Assembly (NCBI GenBank): GCA_964495375.1
Contig: CAZBWM010000012.1
Span: forward strand, 11,323-75,322
Source of the DNA: an uncultured Planctomycetaceae bacterium
GTDB taxonomy: Bacteria; Planctomycetota; Planctomycetia; Pirellulales; JAEUIK01
DNA: 64,000 bases
Direction of reading: 5' to 3'
The first letter of the stretch is position 1; each line of letters starts with the position of its first letter. The notes beneath the pieces are model-generated. The model worked only from the letters and a program-made list of their open reading frames with translations, did no database searches and was not told where the DNA came from. Both the position numbers and the translations under genes were made by a program. This document shows, in pieces, positions 17,921 through 51,633 of the stretch.

Positions 17921-18215
17921 GGTCTAGTGGTTAGCCTGCGGTGAGCTTGTCGAACCGTGGCGAGTGGTCAGCCTGCGGCCCTCGGTCGGATCCCCAGGTC
18001 GGTCGCCTGATCTGTTACTCCACTGCTCGCGGCCACAGGCCTCTTCAATAAAGTTGCCCGGGAATTTGCGTCCGGGTGCGTCCGGGTGACTTGATGTGCG
18101 ACGATAAATCAAATGGATGCAACACCTTAGGGCGACAGGTGTCCGCCCAATTTTGCGTCCGGGTGATCGTCCGGCTTGCGTCCGGGTCCTAGGGTTTGCG
18201 TCCGGGTGGCGGGGC
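17921..18215. repeat. intergenic element A: array of TTGCGTCC-GGGTG direct repeats, paralogous to 26976-27230
   Basis: TTGCGTCCGGGTG at 18066, 18153 and 18196. TTGCGTCCGGGTC at 18176. CGTCCGGGTG at 18079. CGTCCGG at 18168. Shares ACTCCACTGCTC (18017-18028) and the lead-in CTCTTCAATAAAGTTGCCCGGGAATTTGCGTCC with element B. Confidence 0.7.
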
Positions 18216-25065: not shown

Positions 25066-25965
25066 GTGCCCCGGCTCGCTCCCCACTCCCTCGAACTCGA
25101 GCACGTGACCAAGACGTACCGCAGCGGCTGGCTCGGCCGCCGCCGGTTGCGCGCCTTGGACGACGTCTCACTGCGCGTCAGTGCCGGGCGAACTTTCGGC
25201 CTGGTCGGGCCGAATCGCGCCGGCAAAACCACGCTCGTCAAAGTGCTGCTCTCGATCTGCCATCCCACGTCGGGTCGCGTGACCCGCTTGGGGCGACCCG
25301 CGCGCGACCGCAGCACGCTGGCCCGCGTCGGCTACGTCCACGAGCGGCAGGCCTTTCCCGGTTATCTCACGCCGGTTCAGTTACTCGAATTGTATGGTCG
25401 GTTGTCGGGAGTCGGTCGGCATCTCGTGCGCTGCCGTACTCAGGATCTGCTTGAGCGCATCGAGTTGGCCGATCGCGCGACCTCGCCGATCTCCACCTTC
25501 AGCAAGGGCATGGTGCAGCGGCTGGCCTTGGCCCAGGCACTGATTAACGAGCCCGATCTGCTGGTGCTCGACGAACCGACCGAAGGGCTTGACCTGTCGG
25601 CGCGGCGGCTCGTCTACGAAATCCTGGCCGAACGGCGCAGCAAGGGTCGCTCGGTGCTGTTGGTCACGCATCAGCTCAGCGACATCGAACGATTGTGCGA
25701 CGAAGTGGCCGTGCTCCGCGCGGGGCGCGTGGTGTTCACCGGGTCGCCCAGCTTGCTCGTCGCCCGCGACGATGCCCGATTGGCCAAGGAGCACGCTCTG
25801 CCCACCGCCGGCGCGGACAGTGCCGGTCGAAATGGCGCGCCGGCGCTCGTCGACTCGTCGGGCTGGCCCGAGTTGGGACTCACCGCCGCGCCGCACGCCG
25901 CCGACGTTGGGCAATCGGCCTTCGAATCGGCCATGCAGCATTTGTATGAGGAGGCGCCGGCATGA
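25066..25965 (+). CDS. ABC transporter ATP-binding protein
   Basis: Walker A GLVGPNRAGKTTL, signature-like FSKGMVQRLALAQAL, Walker B LLVLDEPTEGLD. GTG start 25 nt after the TadG-like stop. Confidence 0.9.
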   Translation: MPRLAPHSLELEHVTKTYRSGWLGRRRLRALDDVSLRVSAGRTFGLVGPNRAGKTTLVKVLLSICHPTSGRVTRLGRPARDRSTLARVGYVHERQAFPGYLTPVQLLELYGRLSGVGRHLVRCRTQDLLERIELADRATSPISTFSKGMVQRLALAQALINEPDLLVLDEPTEGLDLSARRLVYEILAERRSKGRSVLLVTHQLSDIERLCDEVAVLRAGRVVFTGSPSLLVARDDARLAKEHALPTAGADSAGRNGAPALVDSSGWPELGLTAAPHAADVGQSAFESAMQHLYEEAPA

Positions 25966-26975
25966 CGTCGAACTTAGCGCTGGTGACCGTCGATCAACTG
26001 GTGCGCGACACGTTTCGGCAGTCGCGCGCGCAAGGGGTCTTTTGGCTGCTGTTGGGGATCTCGGCGGTCTGCATCCTGCTGTGCGCCAGCGTGAGCATCG
26101 ATGGGGCCGTGCAGTTGGCCGGGCCGGGCGAAAACCCCGACTTTCTGCCGCGCACCGAAGCGCAGGCCCACGACAAAGAGATCCTCAAGCGCGACGGCGT
26201 GGCCGTTGTCGGCGGCGACCTGTCGCTTGGCTTTGGGGCCGTGCGGGTGCCGCTGGCGCGCGACGCGAAACATGCCGTCCACGCGCTGCAATTGGCGCTG
26301 GCCTCGGGCGTGGCCGACACGCTCGGCGTGCTCTTGGCATTGGTGTGGACCGCTGGGTTTCTGCCTGGCTTCTTGGATCGGCAATCGATCAGCGTGTTGC
26401 TGGCCAAACCGGCGCCGCGCTGGGCGCTGCTCTTGGGCAAGTACGCCGGCGTGCTGGCCTTCGTGCTGTTTCAAGGAGCGATCTTCGTCGGTGGCACCTG
26501 GTTGGCGCTCGGCGCACGCACCGGCATCTGGGATTTTGCCTACTTGAAAAGTGCTCCGTTGTTGCTGTTGCACTTTGGGATTTTCTTTAGCGTTTCGTTG
26601 TTGTTGGCGGTCTGCACGCGTAGCACCGTGGCGAGCGTGTTCGGCTCGATCGCGTTCTGGCTGATGTGCTGGGGAATGAACTTCGGCCGGCACGCCTTGG
26701 TGGCTGACGTGGCCGCCGGCAGCGGCGCCGAGTTCGGCCAACCGCTGTTGGGCATCGTCGAGTTCGGTTACTGGTTCCTACCGAAGCCGGCCGACCTGGG
26801 GATCTTGGTCCGCGACGCGCTCAAAGCACAAGACTTCTACAGCCAGCCGGCCGCCTTCGACTTCGTGCAAGCGCACGGGCAGTTCCACCCTGTGTGGTCA
26901 GTGGCCGCCTCGCTGGCGTTCATGCTGTTGATCTTCTGGGCAGCCGTGCGGCAGTTCGTGGCGACAGACTACTGA
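25962..26975 (+). CDS. ABC-2-type transporter permease
   Basis: ATGA overlap with the ATPase gene. About 6 hydrophobic segments with a large first extracytoplasmic loop. Confidence 0.7.
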   Translation: MTSNLALVTVDQLVRDTFRQSRAQGVFWLLLGISAVCILLCASVSIDGAVQLAGPGENPDFLPRTEAQAHDKEILKRDGVAVVGGDLSLGFGAVRVPLARDAKHAVHALQLALASGVADTLGVLLALVWTAGFLPGFLDRQSISVLLAKPAPRWALLLGKYAGVLAFVLFQGAIFVGGTWLALGARTGIWDFAYLKSAPLLLLHFGIFFSVSLLLAVCTRSTVASVFGSIAFWLMCWGMNFGRHALVADVAAGSGAEFGQPLLGIVEFGYWFLPKPADLGILVRDALKAQDFYSQPAAFDFVQAHGQFHPVWSVAASLAFMLLIFWAAVRQFVATDY

Positions 26976-27230
26976 GTAGTGGCTAGTGCTCAGTGGTTAG
27001 TGGTTCGAGAACACCACTCCACTGCTCAACTGATATCCTGCTCACCTTCTCGCCGGCAGGGCGCACCCCTCTTCTATAAAGTGTTCCGGGATTTTGCGTC
27101 CTAACCGTCCTAAGCCCGACAAAACAGCACCTAAAGCCTTGCCAGGTTAGCACTTGACCTTAGGACGCAAAACCGAAAAAGCTTGCGTCCTAAACCGTCC
27201 TAAGAGGGCCGTTTTGCGTCCTAAGCCTGA
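26976..27230. repeat. intergenic element B: array of TTGCGTCC-TAA(G) repeats, paralogous to 17921-18215
   Basis: TTGCGTCCTAA 27094-27104 followed by CCGTCCTAAG 27105-27114. Inverted copy cttaggacgcaaaac 27159-27173. TTGCGTCCTAAA 27183-27194 followed by CCGTCCTAAG 27195-27204. gttttgcgtcctaag 27211-27225. ACTCCACTGCTC at 27016-27027. Confidence 0.7.
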
Positions 27231-27259
27231 ATCGCGAAGCCTTGGACGATGAAGATTTT

Positions 27260-27336
27260 GACCACGGATGACACCGATCGCACGGATGGTTGAATTCGTG
27301 TTCCGTTCATCCGTGTGATCCGTGACATCCATGGTC
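27260..27336. repeat. imperfect palindromic 'CACGGATG' hairpin element
   Basis: gaccacggatgacaccgatcgcacggatgg versus the reverse complement of ccgttcatccgtgtgatccgtgacatccatggtc. Arms are roughly 80% complementary. Confidence 0.5.
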
Positions 27337-27708
27337 AACGTGGTCTTGGTTTTTGATTCGCGCGGCGAGTCGTGCTTAGCGCTTGGTCATCGTGGTGTCG
27401 TTGTGGTGACTCTCGATGCGGCGCATGTTCTGGCGGCGCGCAAAATGCCAATGCATCCACAGAAGAACACGCCGAAGGACACAGAAGTTCGATCGGTGAT
27501 GCCGTTGGGCGTGGCCACGATCGTTCTGTGATCGTCTGCGCCTTCTGCTGATGTATTCTGTAATTGTTGGCGCGCACGGCGAGCGGGCTCGCGCCAAGCC
27601 GACCCCTTGAACGCATGCGTGCGTGGGCTCCTTGGTGGCAAGTATTTGATTGCAGTCCGCGGCGCGCACCGTATGCGCACGCGGAATTGACTCGCGTCCC
27701 CTTTCGTG

Positions 27709-27790
27709 CCGACGGTGTCAGGAACCACCTCCGACGACGTGCAAGGCACTGGATCGTCGTAGGCTCGGCGGTTCCAGACACCGATTCCGG
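27709..27790. repeat. degenerate 4th copy of the GGTGTCAGGAACCG palindromic element
   Basis: Left arm gccgacggtgtcaggaacca, right arm cggttccagacaccgattccgg. One stem mismatch (A where the other copies have T). Confidence 0.5.
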
Positions 27791-27930
27791 AGCGACTCGC
27801 GTGCCCGGCGCGCATCGCTGGTTTTCGCCGCGTAGCGGCGACGTCGACTTCGAGATCGCCGTGAACTCGCGACCACACAGCAGCGACAATGTCGCCACTG
27901 CGCGGCTTGGTCTTCGCTGAACGTCGAGTG

Positions 27931-27974
27931 TCCGTGGGTTTCACCCACGGCTAAACGCCGCGGCCGCTACGCGG
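27931..27974 (+). repeat. 44-nt CCGTGGGTTTCACCCACGGCTAA..GGCCGCTACGCGGC unit (left, inverted partner at 28576-28621)
   Basis: About 80% identical to the reverse complement of 28576-28621. Contains its own 7-bp hairpin ccgtggg/cccacgg. Confidence 0.6.
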
Positions 27975-28434
27975 CCAAGGACACACGACGATTTACGTCA
28001 GACCATGCGAGCGCGCACGGAAATCGCTTGCCGAAAGCCATCGCTCGACCTTTCGATCGCGCTGCTCCGGAGGAACCGGATTGCGGCGCATTCCTTGCGG
28101 AATTGCACACAATCGGGCACAAAGCTCAACGGGCCGCGATCGGGGCCGATCGGCAGTTTGCGGGCAAATGGCCGGGTCTATCGCCCAGGCCATACCAGCA
28201 TCCTAGGCGCCGGGTGGCTCAGTGTCAATATGTTTTGGAACACCTTTTTGTACATTATTCTCGGAGTTCGAGCCACGATGGGGGCTGGCAAAAACGCCAG
28301 GCTTTGCCCCAATGGCCGCGAGGCTCGCAAGAGATTTCGACAGCGGCCAGCGCAATCAGGCATCGCCCAACACGTTGCATCGACCAAGATCGGGCGGAGC
28401 CTGACTCCCGGCGGCAAACGTCTCGCAGAAAGAA

Positions 28435-28462
28435 GTCTCGCGCAAAGGCGCGAAGGCGCAGA
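28435..28462 (+). repeat. TCTCGCGCAAAGGCGCGAAGGCGCAGAG short repeat (second copy at 37663-37690)
   Basis: The two 28-nt copies differ at only 4 positions (tctcgcgcAaaggcgcGaaggcgcAGag versus tctcgcgcCaaggcgcTaaggcgcGAag). Confidence 0.55.
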
Positions 28463-28575
28463 GCAACGAGGCGGATCAGGATTTCCCGCCCGGCCATTTG
28501 CGGTTGCGGTTCGTCGAGCCCCAAAGGGGATCGGAACTTTCAGCCCAGCGGTTGTCACACAGCGACGATTGCATT

Positions 28576-28621
28576 CGCCGCGTAGCGGCCGAAAGAGCTT
28601 AGCCGTGGGGTGAACCCACGG
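28576..28621 (-). repeat. right inverted partner of the 27931-27974 unit
   Basis: gccgcgtagcggccgaaagagcttagccgtggggtgaacccacgg. A partial third copy ttcgccgcgtagcggcgac lies at 27824-27842. Confidence 0.6.
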
Positions 28622-28720
28622 AACCGTTCGCGAATAGGCGAACAAGCCGCGCAGCGGCGAGAGACAGTGTAGTCATCGCCCTCCGCGTGATGAATCTTCG
28701 TGGAGTGAGCTGAGCAAGAC

Positions 28721-28756
28721 GAGACCAGGGGCTGCGCCAGTGCGGCTATTGACGGT
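28721..28756 (+). repeat. GAGACCAGGGGCT..GGCTATTGACGGT 36-nt direct repeat, copy 1
   Basis: gagaccaggggctgcgccagtgcggctattgacggt versus 29063-29098 gagaccaggggcttccgccacctggctattaacggt. Confidence 0.6.
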
Positions 28757-28892
28757 TAGGGCGCCAGCCGTTTGAGAGCTTGGAACGTATATCGCTGCGC
28801 GGCTGGCGCGAACTGGCGGGGCAACGTCAACTCGCCCTCGCTGGCGCGTCGGGTTCGTGTTGGTGCGCCGCATCGCACGCGGGGCTGCGCCA

Positions 28893-28966
28893 GGGGAACG
28901 GGAGTCGTTTCCGGCCTGCGTCGTCGATGTGTTCTTGGTCGTCGCCCGGAAACGACTCCCGTCCCC
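28893..28966. repeat. GGGGA(A)CGGGAGTCGTTTCCGG long-stem hairpin element (family copy 1)
   Basis: Left arm 28893-28914 and right arm 28946-28966 are complementary over 21 bp with one bulged A. The loop is 31 nt. Confidence 0.7.
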
Positions 28967-29062
28967 TTCAGGCTTGCGGCGGCATCACGTGCCGCAACAT
29001 CGCTAGGCGCGTCAGGGCGGTTTTCTGTCGCCCCGGTTGGGGCTTGCGCTCGATTGCGCGAT

Positions 29063-29098
29063 GAGACCAGGGGCTTCCGCCACCTGGCTATTAACGGT
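29063..29098 (+). repeat. GAGACCAGGGGCT..GGCTATTAACGGT 36-nt direct repeat, copy 2
   Basis: See 28721-28756. Confidence 0.6.
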
Positions 29099-29137
29099 CA
29101 CGGCGTTGTCGTTCATGCAGATCAATAGCATTGCCGA

Positions 29138-29222
29138 GTCGCGCGCGAGGCAACGGCCCCCTCACCCCTAACCCCTCTCCCGCAAGGGGAGAGGGGAACC
29201 GGATGTTGCGTCGCGCGCGAGG
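29138..29222. mobile_element. candidate miniature insertion: 59-bp CCCTCACCC/GAGGGG hairpin element (family copy 3) flanked by a perfect 13-bp direct repeat
   Basis: gtcgcgcgcgagg occurs at 29138-29150 and again at 29210-29222. The enclosed 29151-29209 starts caacgg and ends ccggatgttgc (short terminal inverted match) and contains ccctcacccctaacccctctcccgcaaggggagaggggaac. Confidence 0.4.
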
Positions 29223-29226
29223 CCTA

Positions 29227-29329
<103 letters not shown>

Positions 29330-29344
29330 AGGCTAGCCGTTCTA

Positions 29345-29743
29345 CTAGAACGAAAGTCCCTCGACGTCGGTGGCTTCGGCCAGGAGCTGCGCGAAACTCA
29401 TCGCCCGCGTCTCGATGCACGTGAAGGGGCAGTCGCTGCCGGCGGCGGCGACAATTAGCAGCTCATGAACGCGCGCGACATAGGCCGGCAGCAGCTCGAG
29501 CGCCTCGGCAGCGCTCGTTGGTTCTTTGCCGATTTCTTCGTAAACGTATTGAACTCCGTCGACGATACTGAGCTCGCAGACGATTGCCTGAAGAACGGAC
29601 AGGCTACCCACCCAGCTCAGGATCAGGTTTTCCTTGTACACTTCAAGCTCGCCATCAATCAACGGCGCAACCTCTGCGATCGACCGTCGCAAATAGTCGA
29701 CGATCACCAGCGCTGCATTCAGTCCGCGGTCGAAGTCGATCAT
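29345..29743 (-). CDS. hypothetical acidic 132-aa protein
   Basis: ATG 29743, 23 nt after the stop of the PQQ-propeller gene. Coding-like GC3. No motif recognised. Confidence 0.5.
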   Translation of the reverse strand: MIDFDRGLNAALVIVDYLRRSIAEVAPLIDGELEVYKENLILSWVGSLSVLQAIVCELSIVDGVQYVYEEIGKEPTSAAEALELLPAYVARVHELLIVAAAGSDCPFTCIETRAMSFAQLLAEATDVEGLSF

Positions 29744-33360: not shown

Positions 33361-33602
33361 GGCCTGCTCCTCTGTTGGTTCCCCCGAACGGACGTGGCAG
33401 CCCGAGCCGAAGATGGACTGGCCCAGGCTGACGACTACGACACCACAACCGCGAGTACCCCAGTCAGCATATCGCTGGCGAGCGGCGGGGGGCAAATTTA
33501 TTCGGGGCGGAGGGCGGGAGACGGCTGACAAGAGAGCAAGACCTTGCGGCATTCGAGCGAATTACGCGGCGAATCTAAGTGTATTGGCGGCGCGATCACC
33601 GA

Positions 33603-33628
33603 GGTGCTGCGCACGCCCTACAAAGCTC
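33603..33628 (+). repeat. GGTGYGYTGCGCACRCCCTACAAAGCTC repeat, forward copy
   Basis: ggtgctgcgcacgccctacaaagctc. Confidence 0.65.
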
Positions 33629-33776: not shown

Positions 33777-33995
33777 GGCACTGCTTGTTCGTCGGCGGAT
33801 ACGTCGATTCGTTAGGACTACACGAATGACGCCGACGACCAAGCAATGGCACACGGGTCGATATCACGCTGGTTCCTGCGCACGCCCCACGAGCGACCCC
33901 GCGTGAAGTGCTGATCGCGAGAACATGATGCTCCGCCAAACGAGCTAGCGCGCGGGATGAATCCCGGGGCTAACAAGATCGCGGCGAACGATCCG

Positions 33996-34024
33996 TGGTG
34001 TGCTGCGCACACCCTACAAAGCTC
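33996..34024 (+). repeat. GGTG..GCGCACACCCTACAAAGCTC repeat, forward copy abutting the stop of 34038..36338
   Basis: ggtgtgctgcgcacaccctacaaagctct. Confidence 0.65.
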
Positions 34025-36383: not shown

Positions 36384-36476
36384 TTGTAGGGTGCGTGGAA
36401 CGCACCAACTCGTCGCTTCGCGCTTGGTCAATGCAACCACTACGCAACGGTGTGTTGCGCACACCCTACAGAACTC
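36384..36476. repeat. inverted pair of CCCTACA repeats (reverse copy 36384-36406, forward copy 36449-36476)
   Basis: ttgtagggtgcgtggaacgcacc ... ggtgtgttgcgcacaccctacagaactc. Lies between the divergent genes 34038..36338 and hsp20. Confidence 0.65.
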
Positions 36477-36604: not shown

Positions 36605-36686
36605 CCGAACGGTGCCAGGAACCGATTCAAGCAGCGCGTCACCCCGTTGCTATGCATCGATTGAAACGGTTCCTGGCACCGATCGG
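36605..36686. repeat. 82-bp palindromic element CCGAACGGTGYCAGGAACCGATTCAAG..loop..GAAACGGTTCCTGRCACCG (copy 1)
   Basis: The arms pair at 24 of 26 positions. This copy has C/G (gccagg/cctggc) where copies 2 and 3 have T/A (gtcagg/cctgac). Confidence 0.75.
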
Positions 36687-37021
36687 AGAACCCGGCGCGC
36701 GGGCAGACTGCCAGGCATCTGCCAGTTTGACCGCGACATTCTGTCACCCCCAACGGCGGCGAACCGCGCCCCGGCGGCGGCGTAGAAAAAGTGGCCAAGG
36801 GGCCTCGCCCTCTCGGGGCTCCGGAGGTTGGTACCGCTCCTGCGTGAGCGCGAATTTGCTGGCTGGTCCGGAGACGAGTGGAGCGCCGCTACCTCACGAC
36901 AGGCGGGGGGCGTCGCCCAGGCTGGCGAGGCCCCGGGGGCCCGAACAAGAAGAGGCACTTTTCAACATCCATTCAACAGAGCAGGCATATCAGGGTTTAT
37001 TAGGGAAAGGAGGCACAAACC

Positions 37022-37690: not shown

Positions 37691-37715
37691 AAGACCGGGG
37701 GGTGCATCCGCGACC

Positions 37716-37776
37716 CTGTAGGGTGTGCGCAGCACAGCAGCGATCCTGGTGCGTTTCACGCACCCTACAAAGCTCC
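37716..37776. repeat. inverted pair of CCCTACA repeats (reverse 37716-37736, forward 37748-37776)
   Basis: ctgtagggtgtgcgcagcaca ... ggtgcgtttcacgcaccctacaaagctcc. Lies between hsp20 and ygiQ. Confidence 0.65.
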
Positions 37777-48870: not shown

Positions 48871-48951
48871 CCGAACGGTGTCAGGAACCGATTCAAGCAA
48901 GGCCTCACCAACATCTGGGCAACAATGGAAACGGTTCCTGACACCGTTCGG
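48871..48951. repeat. palindromic GGTGTCAGGAACCG element (copy 2)
   Basis: ccgaacggtgtcaggaaccgattcaagc...ggaaacggttcctgacaccgttcgg, with a 20-bp perfect stem. Confidence 0.75.
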
Positions 48952-48983
48952 GCTGCCCGCTGACCAGACTGACCCACAGTTAT

Positions 48984-50075
48984 CTATCCGCGCATATCGA
49001 CTTGCGCCGGATTGATGGCTTTGTACTTTCCTTTGTTGGCCGTGATCTCGAAGGCCTGGGGGACCGACTGGATGCCTGGCAGGATATGCGTAATCGTCGG
49101 CGCGAGACCGACGCGGCCCGAGGCGACGAGCCGCACCGTGTGCTCCAGGTGTTGCGGCGTGCTGATATCGGGGAACAGGTAGCGCAAGCTGCGCTCGCGG
49201 AGCGTGTCGATATTGACTTCTAACGGACCACCGAACCAGGAAACGCCGATGATCTTGCCGCCGGAGCGGACGGCGTCGATCGCTTGCGTCAACGTGCGGC
49301 TGCCGGCCAATCCTTGCTTGACGCTACCGCCGGCGCATTCGAAGACGACGTCGGCGCCGATGTCTTCGGTCAGGTCGCGGATCGTGGCCACGGCATCGCA
49401 GGTGCTGGCGTTGAGCGCCACGTCGGCGCCGAGCTGCTTAGACATCGCGCACGCTTCGTCGCGCACGTCGACCGTGATCACGCGCCCCGCGCCACTCACG
49501 CGGGCGATCTGCAGGCATTCGAGGCCCATGCTCCCCTGACCGAAGATCACTACGGTGTCGCCGATCTGGAGGTCGGCCGTTTCGACCGCCGCCACGCTAT
49601 CGCTCAACGATTGCAGGCAGGCGGCTTCGCTGTCGGAGATCGAGTCGTCGACTTTCACGAGGGCGATCTCGGGTAGCAGCGCCAGCTCGGAGAAGCAGCC
49701 GGGGAGATCGAAGCCGATCACCGGTCCGCGACGGCAGAGCGTGCTGCGCCCCGAGTCGCAGAGAGCACAGTGCTGACAGGGGAGTTTTGCCCGGGCCGCG
49801 ACGCGCTCGCCGACGCGAAACCTCGTGACCCCGGCACCAGTGGCGACGATCCGCGCGCAGAACTCGTGGCCGAAGAGTTGCACCGGGGCTTCGGTTTCCA
49901 AGCGGCGTTTGATGCGATCAAACGCCAGCGTGGGAATGCCACAGGCCAGTTGCGCTTCGGTGACGGAGGGCTGCACGACCAGCGGTTCGACCACCACGTG
50001 CGCGGCAGGGCACGCGGGCTCGGGCACGTCGTCGAGCCGCAGATCGTTGAACGCGTAGAATCGCCAGGCCTTCAT
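48984..50075 (-). CDS. zinc-dependent medium-chain alcohol/polyol dehydrogenase
   Basis: GHEFCARIV catalytic-Zn motif, structural-Zn CQHCALCDSGRSTLC, Rossmann VVIFGQGSMGLECLQIA. Confidence 0.85.
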   Translation of the reverse strand: MKAWRFYAFNDLRLDDVPEPACPAAHVVVEPLVVQPSVTEAQLACGIPTLAFDRIKRRLETEAPVQLFGHEFCARIVATGAGVTRFRVGERVAARAKLPCQHCALCDSGRSTLCRRGPVIGFDLPGCFSELALLPEIALVKVDDSISDSEAACLQSLSDSVAAVETADLQIGDTVVIFGQGSMGLECLQIARVSGAGRVITVDVRDEACAMSKQLGADVALNASTCDAVATIRDLTEDIGADVVFECAGGSVKQGLAGSRTLTQAIDAVRSGGKIIGVSWFGGPLEVNIDTLRERSLRYLFPDISTPQHLEHTVRLVASGRVGLAPTITHILPGIQSVPQAFEITANKGKYKAINPAQVDMRG

Positions 50076-51335: not shown

Positions 51336-51417
51336 CCGAACGGTGTCAGGAACCGATTCAAGTACGTGCCAACGATTAGAGACTTGCCGGTTGAATCGGT
51401 TCCTGACACCGATTGGG
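51336..51417. repeat. palindromic GGTGTCAGGAACCG element (copy 3)
   Basis: ccgaacggtgtcaggaaccgattcaag...ttgaatcggttcctgacaccgattggg, with a 21-bp perfect stem. Confidence 0.75.
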
Positions 51418-51633
51418 CGCGGCTGGGCGGTCGCGGATTGCGCATCGCGGCTGTAACATTCGGCAGAGGTTCGCGCCAGGCGACGAGGAGAGGCCCCCGT
51501 CGCACGGCCCCTGCTGGGCAAAAACCCGCGGGACGAATCTGGCAACACGACGGGGCGATTTCTTAGCAGCGCCGCCTGAGCGGCCCTAAACCGGAACATC
51601 TTCGCAGCTGCACCTGAGAGAGGATCAATTGCC

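Follow-up and report, generated by a model that had tools for sequence, protein, structure and literature searches.

The intergenic region and its repeats

The DNA analysed here (the window) is a stretch of 64 kb which, judged by homologues named from Pirellulales MAGs, derives from the chromosome of an uncultured Pirellulales bacterium. The site of interest lies within a gap of 2.37 kb (26976-29344) between an ABC-2 permease gene (25962-26975, + strand) and a gene encoding a 132-aa protein (29345-29743, - strand), the two genes being convergent. A 202-aa ORF at 28005-28613 appears as a gene call in the JGI record. It gave no Pfam match, its GC3 is below the cut-off of 0.70 (accepted genes have 0.71-0.86), and it is partly missing in two related contigs (L126 and L132). 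The low GC3 and this partial absence suggest that the ORF is probably not a gene and that the whole gap is probably non-coding. In other lineages the corresponding gap measures 760 nt (L136/L137), 166 nt (L142) and 77 nt (L272). The gap has expanded in the window lineage, where the addition of several unrelated hairpin repeats has enlarged it. The features referred to in the text are listed below in window coordinates, with TM standing for the hairpin motif described in the next section.

1955-1995, + strand: TM copy A, divergent, just 3' of the stop of gene 208-1935
2753-2790, + strand: TM copy B, enclosed by a perfect inverted repeat of 17 nt (2724-2740 / 2798-2814)
28718-28763, + strand: box 1 of the ~335-nt unit (GACGAGACCAGGGGCT..GGCTATTGACGG)
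28872-28885, + strand: third, degenerate copy of the 14-mer, ATCGCACGCGGGGC (11/14), 7 nt 5' of the first long hairpin
28893-28966, no strand assigned: long hairpin copy 1 (arms GGGGAACGGGAGTCGTTTCCGG / CCGGAAACGACTCCCGTCCCC)
29060-29105, + strand: box 2 of the ~335-nt unit, which anchors orthology with L126, L269 and L270
29138-29151, + strand: left copy of the 14-nt direct repeat, GTCGCGCGCGAGGC, holding the 10-nt palindrome TCGCGCGCGA
29152-29209, + strand: 58-nt segment between the 14-mers, made of AACGG, the TM hairpin and AACCGGATGTTGC
29157-29196, + strand: TM core CCCCCTCACCCC-TAA-CCCCTCTCCC-GCAA-GGGGAGAGGGG, with pyrimidine, pyrimidine and purine boxes (C-box 29157-29168, linker TAA, C-box 29172-29181, loop GCAA, G-box 29186-29196)
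29210-29223, + strand: right copy of the 14-nt direct repeat, 3 nt 5' of the second long hairpin
29227-29299, no strand assigned: long hairpin copy 2 (arms GGGGGACAGGAGTCCTTCCGG / CGGAACGACTCCAGTCCCC), at whose 3' end Logan assemblies break

The gap holds two units of a repeat of about 335 nt, each consisting of a box and a long hairpin with 20-nt arms. The 46-nt box heading each unit (GAYGAGACCAGGGGCT..GGCTATTRACGG) is kept in relatives (L126, L269, L270) at about 75% overall identity, and could be a promoter or the start of a small RNA. The arms of the long hairpin recur in about 20 distinct hairpins (24 rows, several on both strands) from Planctomycetota and other MAGs. Their flanks are unrelated, which rules out the 14-mer as a part of the long-hairpin consensus. 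In this family, conserved arms GGGGACGGGAGTCGTTTCC / GGAAACGACTCCCGTCCCC enclose loops of 0 to about 45 unrelated nt (L166, L167, L172, L193, L201 and others); it occurs in MAGs of Pirellulales, other Planctomycetota, Phycisphaerae and Vicinamibacterales, and an A-run and a T-run frequently border it, as in a bidirectional terminator. A scan of genome contigs with an arm of 15 specified bases proved too short, most of its 112 matches being due to chance. Yet another repeat family is represented by the hairpin GCACTGCTGGGCAAGCCAGCAGTGGC at 29300-29330, after the 132-aa gene; extra copies of it are found in contig L134, one of them ending inside the right 14-mer. Near the other end of the gap, the interval 27065-27225 shares CTCTTCWATAAAGT..CCGGGAWTTTGCGTCC with the intergenic region 18040-18215, followed in both by dispersed copies of TTGCGTCC(GGGTG/TAA), and part of this is conserved in L269 and L270. 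These intervals look like putative arrays of binding sites downstream of a common promoter-like motif.

The hairpin and its flanking 14-nt repeat

The order of elements at the site is CCGA-GTCGCGCGCGAGGC-AACGG-CCCCCTCACCCC-TAA-CCCCTCTCCC-GCAA-GGGGAGAGGGG-AACCGGATGTTGC-GTCGCGCGCGAGGC-CTAGGGGG. A preliminary description had noted a perfect 13-bp direct repeat around a 59-bp insert. The repeat is real, its actual length being 14 nt and that of the insert 58 nt. Its two copies match at 14 of 14 positions and abut the segment 29152-29209 directly on both sides, while the bases bordering them differ (A vs C on both sides). A dinucleotide-shuffled 64-kb window is expected to contain about 0.2 exact direct repeats of at least 14 nt within 150 nt. 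In same-contig control trials run around 134 other hairpin copies, at least 12 positions matched between flanks in 0.3%; in these copies and 2,680 same-contig control positions taken together, the share is less than 1%. The sequence of the region is moreover identical in two JGI samples (L001/L004 and L005). The shuffles, the same-contig controls and the two identical samples rule out chance or an assembly artefact as the source of the repeat. At 49348/49420 there is also a 13-nt repeat whose copies are likewise 72 nt apart; it falls within a zinc-dehydrogenase gene and is coincidental.

The palindrome TCGCGCGCGA makes up 10 of the 14 bases, so that the direct repeat is also an inverted repeat whose copies pair as an outer stem. 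The predicted DNA fold of the resulting hairpin has an MFE of -34.7 kcal/mol (z = -5.2). Short inverted ends had also been proposed for the insert. These come down to GCAAC/GTTGC (29150-29154 / 29205-29209), which is present; it is a weak feature, as the GC of its left arm belongs to the 14-mer.

By its sequence, the hairpin at 29157-29196 is the already known BoxC or PIT element, also called the G/C-rich intrastrand triplex motif (TM). This motif is defined by three blocks of about 9-11 nt separated by linkers of 1-6 nt, type A having the linker TTA on the G strand. The window core consists of two near-repeat pyrimidine blocks and then a purine block complementary to the second, with the linker TAA (TTA on the other strand) and the loop GCAA; its complement is a four-run G-tract. 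The arrangement CCCTCACCC-TAA-CCCTCTCCC-loop-GGGAGAGGG is the reverse complement of the E. coli type A arrangement CCCTCTCCC-loop-GGGAGAGGG-TTA-GGGTGAGGG (PMC4666352, Table 1), and likewise the E. coli type A motif written CCCTCTCCC..GGGAGAGGGTTAGGGTGAGGG reverse-complements the window core. The pattern CCCTCACCC-N-CCCTCTCCC-loop-GGGAGAGGG was found in at least 120 IMG/VR contigs. Across the copies found elsewhere, conservation is limited to a core of about 35-40 nt. All three TM copies of the window are intergenic, and the 134 copies elsewhere have unrelated flanks. The window motif thus resembles E. coli TM in its three-block sequence, its intergenic location, its several copies per genome, its cosmopolitan distribution and the instability of its loci between close relatives; it differs in that each box is 1-2 C/G longer.

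TM was described as BoxC in E. coli in the 1990s, and is also named PIT element or TM_ECO (PMC4666352). E. coli K-12 carries 23 copies, and the motif occurs in more than 260 other genomes (Holder et al. 2015, PMC4666352), in a report in which the word Planctomycetota has 0 occurrences. It forms a stable single-strand triplex in vitro, as seen by CD and NMR on E. coli sequences only; the triplex was not found in double-stranded DNA or in vivo (PMC4666352). It has also been described as HPGQ, a switch between G-quadruplex and hairpin (Kaplan et al. 2016, PMC5100583). The preliminary description stated that this type of hairpin is usually treated as a passive REP-like or terminator sequence. That label does not suit a motif with a literature of its own, in which an earlier study, cited in PMC4666352, reports PIT elements to be devoid of promoter or terminator activity. 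An intrinsic terminator would be a GC-rich stem-loop with a T-run. A T-run is absent after each of the three window copies on either strand and the terminator scan made no call at 29130-29230, so this identity was rejected. Rfam had no family at gathering score for the hairpin; matches at relaxed E-value were far below threshold, mostly to eukaryotic miRNA-precursor or generic hairpin models, none of them near gathering score. A search for tRNA genes found none. The hairpin at 29157-29196 should carry the known-motif label (BoxC/PIT/TM) in annotations.

The site in relatives and other copies of the motif

Related contigs were reached through homologues of the 132-aa protein, and two more (L269 and L270) through a scan of JGI metagenomes for the pattern "motif + long-hairpin arm". 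The contigs obtained through ABC-2 permease homologues all stop before the site or come from a lineage with a different gene order. One relative, L126 (about 91% nucleotide identity), has the repeat-insert-repeat plan of the window. Its left copy, GTCGCACGAGGGGC, agrees with the 14-mer at 11 of 14 positions and is followed by AACGG, while its right copy is exact and preceded by GCTGC. Its insert measures 97 nt, 39 extra nt standing in place of the 5' stem arm of TM, and the hairpin is disrupted. The left copy bears three changes in 14 nt vs about 1.3 predicted from the local divergence of 9%. As this relative, diverged by about 9%, shares the plan, the event is older than their split and the insertion is not recent, contrary to the earlier suggestion. 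The decayed left copy and the disrupted stem indicate that L126 is maintaining neither the repeat nor the stem. In two other relatives (L127 and L132) the interval 29044-29243 is wholly missing, and in L134 the end of another element, or a rearrangement breakpoint, falls inside the right 14-mer.

L269 and L270 are colinear with the window from about 27070, at about 75% identity, and around the site they align from 28829 to exactly 29151. They carry a single 14-mer, GTCGCGCGCGGGGC (one base different), located 40 nt after box 2 (42 nt in the window). They have no TM; a hairpin of a different family follows the single 14-mer immediately. To the right of the 14-mer they are not significantly similar to the window, as judged with shuffles and controls, and they lead to a different gene. 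A downstream homology perceived by eye in L269 (GGCAACGG, GATGTCGC, GAC.G.AGTCCT) was rejected because it was not significant against these same shuffles and controls; GGCAACGG there probably represents the terminal part of the other hairpin element. Orthology is thus limited to the left side, which makes these contigs half an empty site, compatible with either polarity. The proposed search for an empty site was successful to this extent: a single copy without hairpin exists, matching the window only to the left of the 14-mer. A clean allele, with left flank, one 14-mer and right flank, was not seen among the relatives examined. What these contigs do establish is that relatives without TM carry one 14-mer at the same place, in the same way as L126 establishes that the event predates a split of about 9% divergence.

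The context of the 14-mers is informative. An upstream GCCG(C/A) is common to the left copy of the window, the unit-1 site (28872-28885) and both L270 sites, while the right copy has GTTGC. Conversely, the downstream context, "C + hairpin", is kept by the right copy and lacking at the left one. A left copy with native upstream context and a right copy with native downstream context form the pattern left by a target duplication. With the single copy in L269 and L270, this pattern partly supports the earlier suggestion of a target-site duplication for the window site; as a property of the whole family it does not hold, as detailed below.

The motif also occurs nearby without TM. The unit-1 site reads GTCGCGCGCGGGGC in L132, L269 and L270, and every lineage has a 14-mer-like motif 5' of the first long hairpin. 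In L270 the unit-1 site and the site after box 2, about 270 nt apart and both devoid of TM, share 20 of 20 nt (GCCGCGTCGCGCGCGGGGCC). Position 11 of the 14-mer co-varies by lineage, being G at both sites in L270 and A at both in the window, where this A completes the palindrome with the T at position 2. The element that follows the 14-mer also varies: it is the TM segment in the window and L126 and a hairpin of another family in L269 and L270, and in L134 the right copy contains the end of a third element. The presence of three different elements at copies of the 14-mer in three lineages suggests a hot spot of breakage or recombination, a behaviour that fits a palindrome holding (CG)4.

The window contains three TM copies in total, all single and in the same orientation, with none further in the 64 kb. 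The preliminary description had placed two related hairpins at 1955-1996 and 2756-2790, and both were recovered with slightly different limits: copy A, which is divergent, at 1955-1995 and copy B at 2753-2790. Neither has a flanking direct repeat. Orthologues of these sites were reached through the SNase gene located between them. In L255 (90% protein identity), a 16-nt spacer replaces a block of about 178 nt containing copy B (about 2667-2844), with no duplication beyond 2-3 nt; L256 and L259 likewise do not have this block. The site A sequence in L255 is divergent and does not form a hairpin; in L259 some 58 nt are missing there, with CCGGC alone repeated at the edges. All three TM sites of the window therefore show indels or replacement in relatives, TM sites alone having been compared.

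We then considered the family as a whole. Around the 134 TM copies on other contigs, flanking repeats were in no excess over same-contig controls: a match of at least 9 was observed in 8 cases vs 4.9 expected. The best flank-to-flank match of these copies is slightly above cross-locus nulls. Border repeats around TM copies exist but are rare and irregular in length. The expectation that each copy would be flanked by a duplication of constant length was thus not borne out, either at copies A and B or among these 134. These copies also settle whether GTCGCGCGCGAGGC belongs to the repeat consensus, a point that the preliminary description had singled out: with more than 130 other copies in unrelated flanks, it does not, and the element is not "simply 85 bp long". 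Nor are the extensions of the core at 29152-29209, AACGG and AACCGGA, conserved in other TM copies.

In E. coli, spacers bearing TM are rearranged significantly more often between strains, and the origin of the motif was left unexplained (PMC4666352). The pstB-pstA spacer of K-12 (L292, NC_000913.3 3908300-3908730) contains a TM-bearing block of 92 nt bounded by an 8-nt repeat, AACCGTGT. This repeat is present in three copies in K-12 and in one copy in many E. coli strains without the block (e.g. L294, NZ_AP022409.1). This is a clean pair of occupied and unoccupied alleles for TM, cleaner than the Pirellulales pair. Repeat-bounded TM cases accordingly vary in length, with 14 nt in the window and 8 nt at pstB-pstA. 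The tauD-hemB and adk-hemH spacers gave no information on duplication, their TM-less alleles having a wholly different spacer, and the yjdP-phnP alleles differ through deletions between the C-boxes of TM itself. In one strain (Ec-U7, L263), a 51-nt insertion in the tauD-hemB spacer adjoins a BoxC/TM copy and has an imperfect 8-nt flanking repeat (GGACGGTC / GGACAGTC).

Origin of the 14-nt repeat

We tentatively favour, at somewhat less than an even chance, a reading in which the 14-nt repeat is the footprint of a single old duplication linked to an insertion at a palindromic hot spot, within a spacer of hairpin repeats that changes fast. The 58-nt TM-bearing segment would have been inserted directly 3' of a GC-rich palindromic 14-mer that was already there, GTCGCGCGCGRGGC; during the insertion this 14-mer would have been duplicated, for instance through the filling-in of a staggered break or a second round of copying following a template switch. 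Such a duplication would come from breakage and repair at the palindromic (CG)4 hot spot and not from a transposase with a fixed stagger, as suggested by the lack of a regular duplication at other TM copies and by the three elements found at the 14-mer in three lineages. We infer the direction of change: a precise deletion between the repeats in the relatives would leave the same single copy. In favour of insertion, all three TM sites of the window differ structurally in relatives, as reported for E. coli (PMC4666352), and the pstB-pstA spacer offers an analogue, with a single AACCGTGT in strains without the block. Against it, palindrome pairing explains 10 of the 14 repeat bases, and the recurrence of the motif nearby without TM (28872-28885; L270) means that two native copies could have pre-existed.

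This last point leads to the main alternative, considered somewhat unlikely, in which both 14-mers are native parts of an architecture of box, motif and long hairpin, with TM merely lying between them and their identity maintained by gene conversion or hairpin-templated correction. It would account for the motif 5' of the first long hairpin, for the two identical TM-less sites of L270, for the co-variation at position 11 and for the lack of a family-wide duplication. The box-to-long-hairpin distances of units 1 and 2 (129 vs 121 nt) also agree with it, as an inserted 72 nt would not predict such a likeness. However, the box-to-hairpin segments of the two units are not significantly alike (score of 12 vs 9.8 +/- 4.1 for shuffles), which fails to establish a common "two-site" plan; those relatives in which box 2 is retained (L269 and L270) have one copy only, and in the window the right copy is without native upstream and the left copy without native downstream context. 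The repeat might instead be a by-product of selection for one long hairpin with TM at its tip and the 14-mers as its outer stem, serving for instance to define an RNA 3' end, to stabilise RNA or, as a cruciform, to bind a protein. The strong predicted fold (outer stem of 10 bp + 5 bp), the location between convergent genes and the nesting of copy B and of the other-family hairpin at 48871 in perfect 17-bp and in 11-bp inverted repeats, respectively, are in keeping with such a structure. In L126, however, the outer stem is broken by three one-sided changes, none compensatory, and the TM stem is disrupted too, while four of the 14 repeat bases are not accounted for by pairing. The lack of a following T-run, of a terminator call, of an Rfam match and of promoter or terminator activity in PIT/TM elements (PMC4666352) also argues against this explanation, which appears very improbable.

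The view taken in the preliminary description was that of a true MITE, a unit of 58-60 nt (GCAAC...GTTGC) with a target-site duplication of 12-14 bp and a transposase encoded elsewhere. MITEs are non-autonomous IS derivatives, such as Correia/NEMIS or Nezha, and their families have common ends and a duplication of fixed length set by the transposase. To our knowledge, target duplications of 12-14 bp are outside the usual range of bacterial IS families. The window copy has features of a MITE: it is a short intergenic insert forming a hairpin, abutted by an exact host direct repeat, with a 5-bp terminal inverted repeat, a palindromic target and one copy of the target at the unoccupied site. The difference lies in the other TM copies. 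The two others in the window and the 134 elsewhere share the internal core of about 40 nt with it and not the ends, GCAAC/GTTGC being found at the 29150-29209 copy only, with ends unlike those of copies A and B or of other contigs, and they have no regular duplication. The insertion is also old, as seen in L126. No transposase family was matched by Pfam among the 28 window ORFs scanned, 10 of which matched no Pfam family and are unclassified; near the E. coli copies, neither a transposase nor an integrase was found (PMC4666352). We regard a true MITE as quite improbable, and the site does not count as evidence for a MITE having a target-site duplication of fixed length.

A RAYT or an IS200/IS605-type transposase had been put forward as the mobilising enzyme. 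IS200/IS605-type Y1 enzymes are not known to make a target duplication, and the RAYT/IS200 type is therefore the wrong candidate for the 14-nt repeat. The segment 29152-29209 contains no GTAG/CTAC or CGTC/GACG tag, and no RAYT match was found among the window ORFs scanned. REP/REPIN elements, mobilised by RAYT (Bertels & Rainey 2011, PMC3116915; Di Nocera et al. 2013, PMC3733652), are like TM short extragenic palindromes in many copies; they are recognised by a GTAG/CGTC tag and inverted doublets, while TM has no tag and its copies are single. A distinct REP family with a GTAG tag (GGTGTGCTGCGCACACCCTACAAAGCTC) is present in the window at 33593-33628, 33989-34024, about 36385-36476 and about 37700-37775. 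Two of these sites are inverted doublets (GTAGGGTG...CACCCTAC), REPIN-like and of the kind that a RAYT would mobilise. Another parallel is found in Nostoc, where small dispersed repeats (SDR) reportedly appear and disappear between orthologous loci; they are said to be very short and often nested in other repeats or hairpins, with no transposase known. They consist of other sequences in another phylum, and their mechanism may differ from that of the window TM.

TM motifs have been known for thirty years and occur in many bacterial groups. The published account reports neither a link to mobility nor flanking duplications (PMC4666352); the window copy, by contrast, is flanked by an exact repeat of 14 nt, and relatives have a single-copy site. 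A pair of occupied and unoccupied sites differing by a duplicated target would provide the first structural hint of how insertion takes place. The yield here is one imperfect pair in Pirellulales and a cleaner 8-nt pair in E. coli, such footprints being the exception. The result is a lead and not a discovery. A broader possibility is that TM is, or was, a cosmopolitan non-autonomous mobile element whose insertion duplicates a variable 8-14 bp of target, with a preference for GC-rich palindromes or the loops of hairpins; the copies in the window (14 bp) and at pstB-pstA (8 bp) would be preserved footprints, and most copies would have lost theirs through local instability provoked by the motif. 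We hold this generalisation to be unlikely.

A third family of hairpins (CCGAACGGTGYCAGGAACCGATTC ... GAAWCGGTTCCTGRCACCGWTYGG) is present at 36605-36688, 48871-48953 and 51336-51418, and in L269 at about 1001-1088. The inverted repeat around its member at 48871 is 11 nt long (GTGGGTCAGTC / GACTGACCCAC) and encloses it as TM copy B is enclosed in its own. The nesting of repeats in the loops of older hairpins looks like a pattern in this genome.
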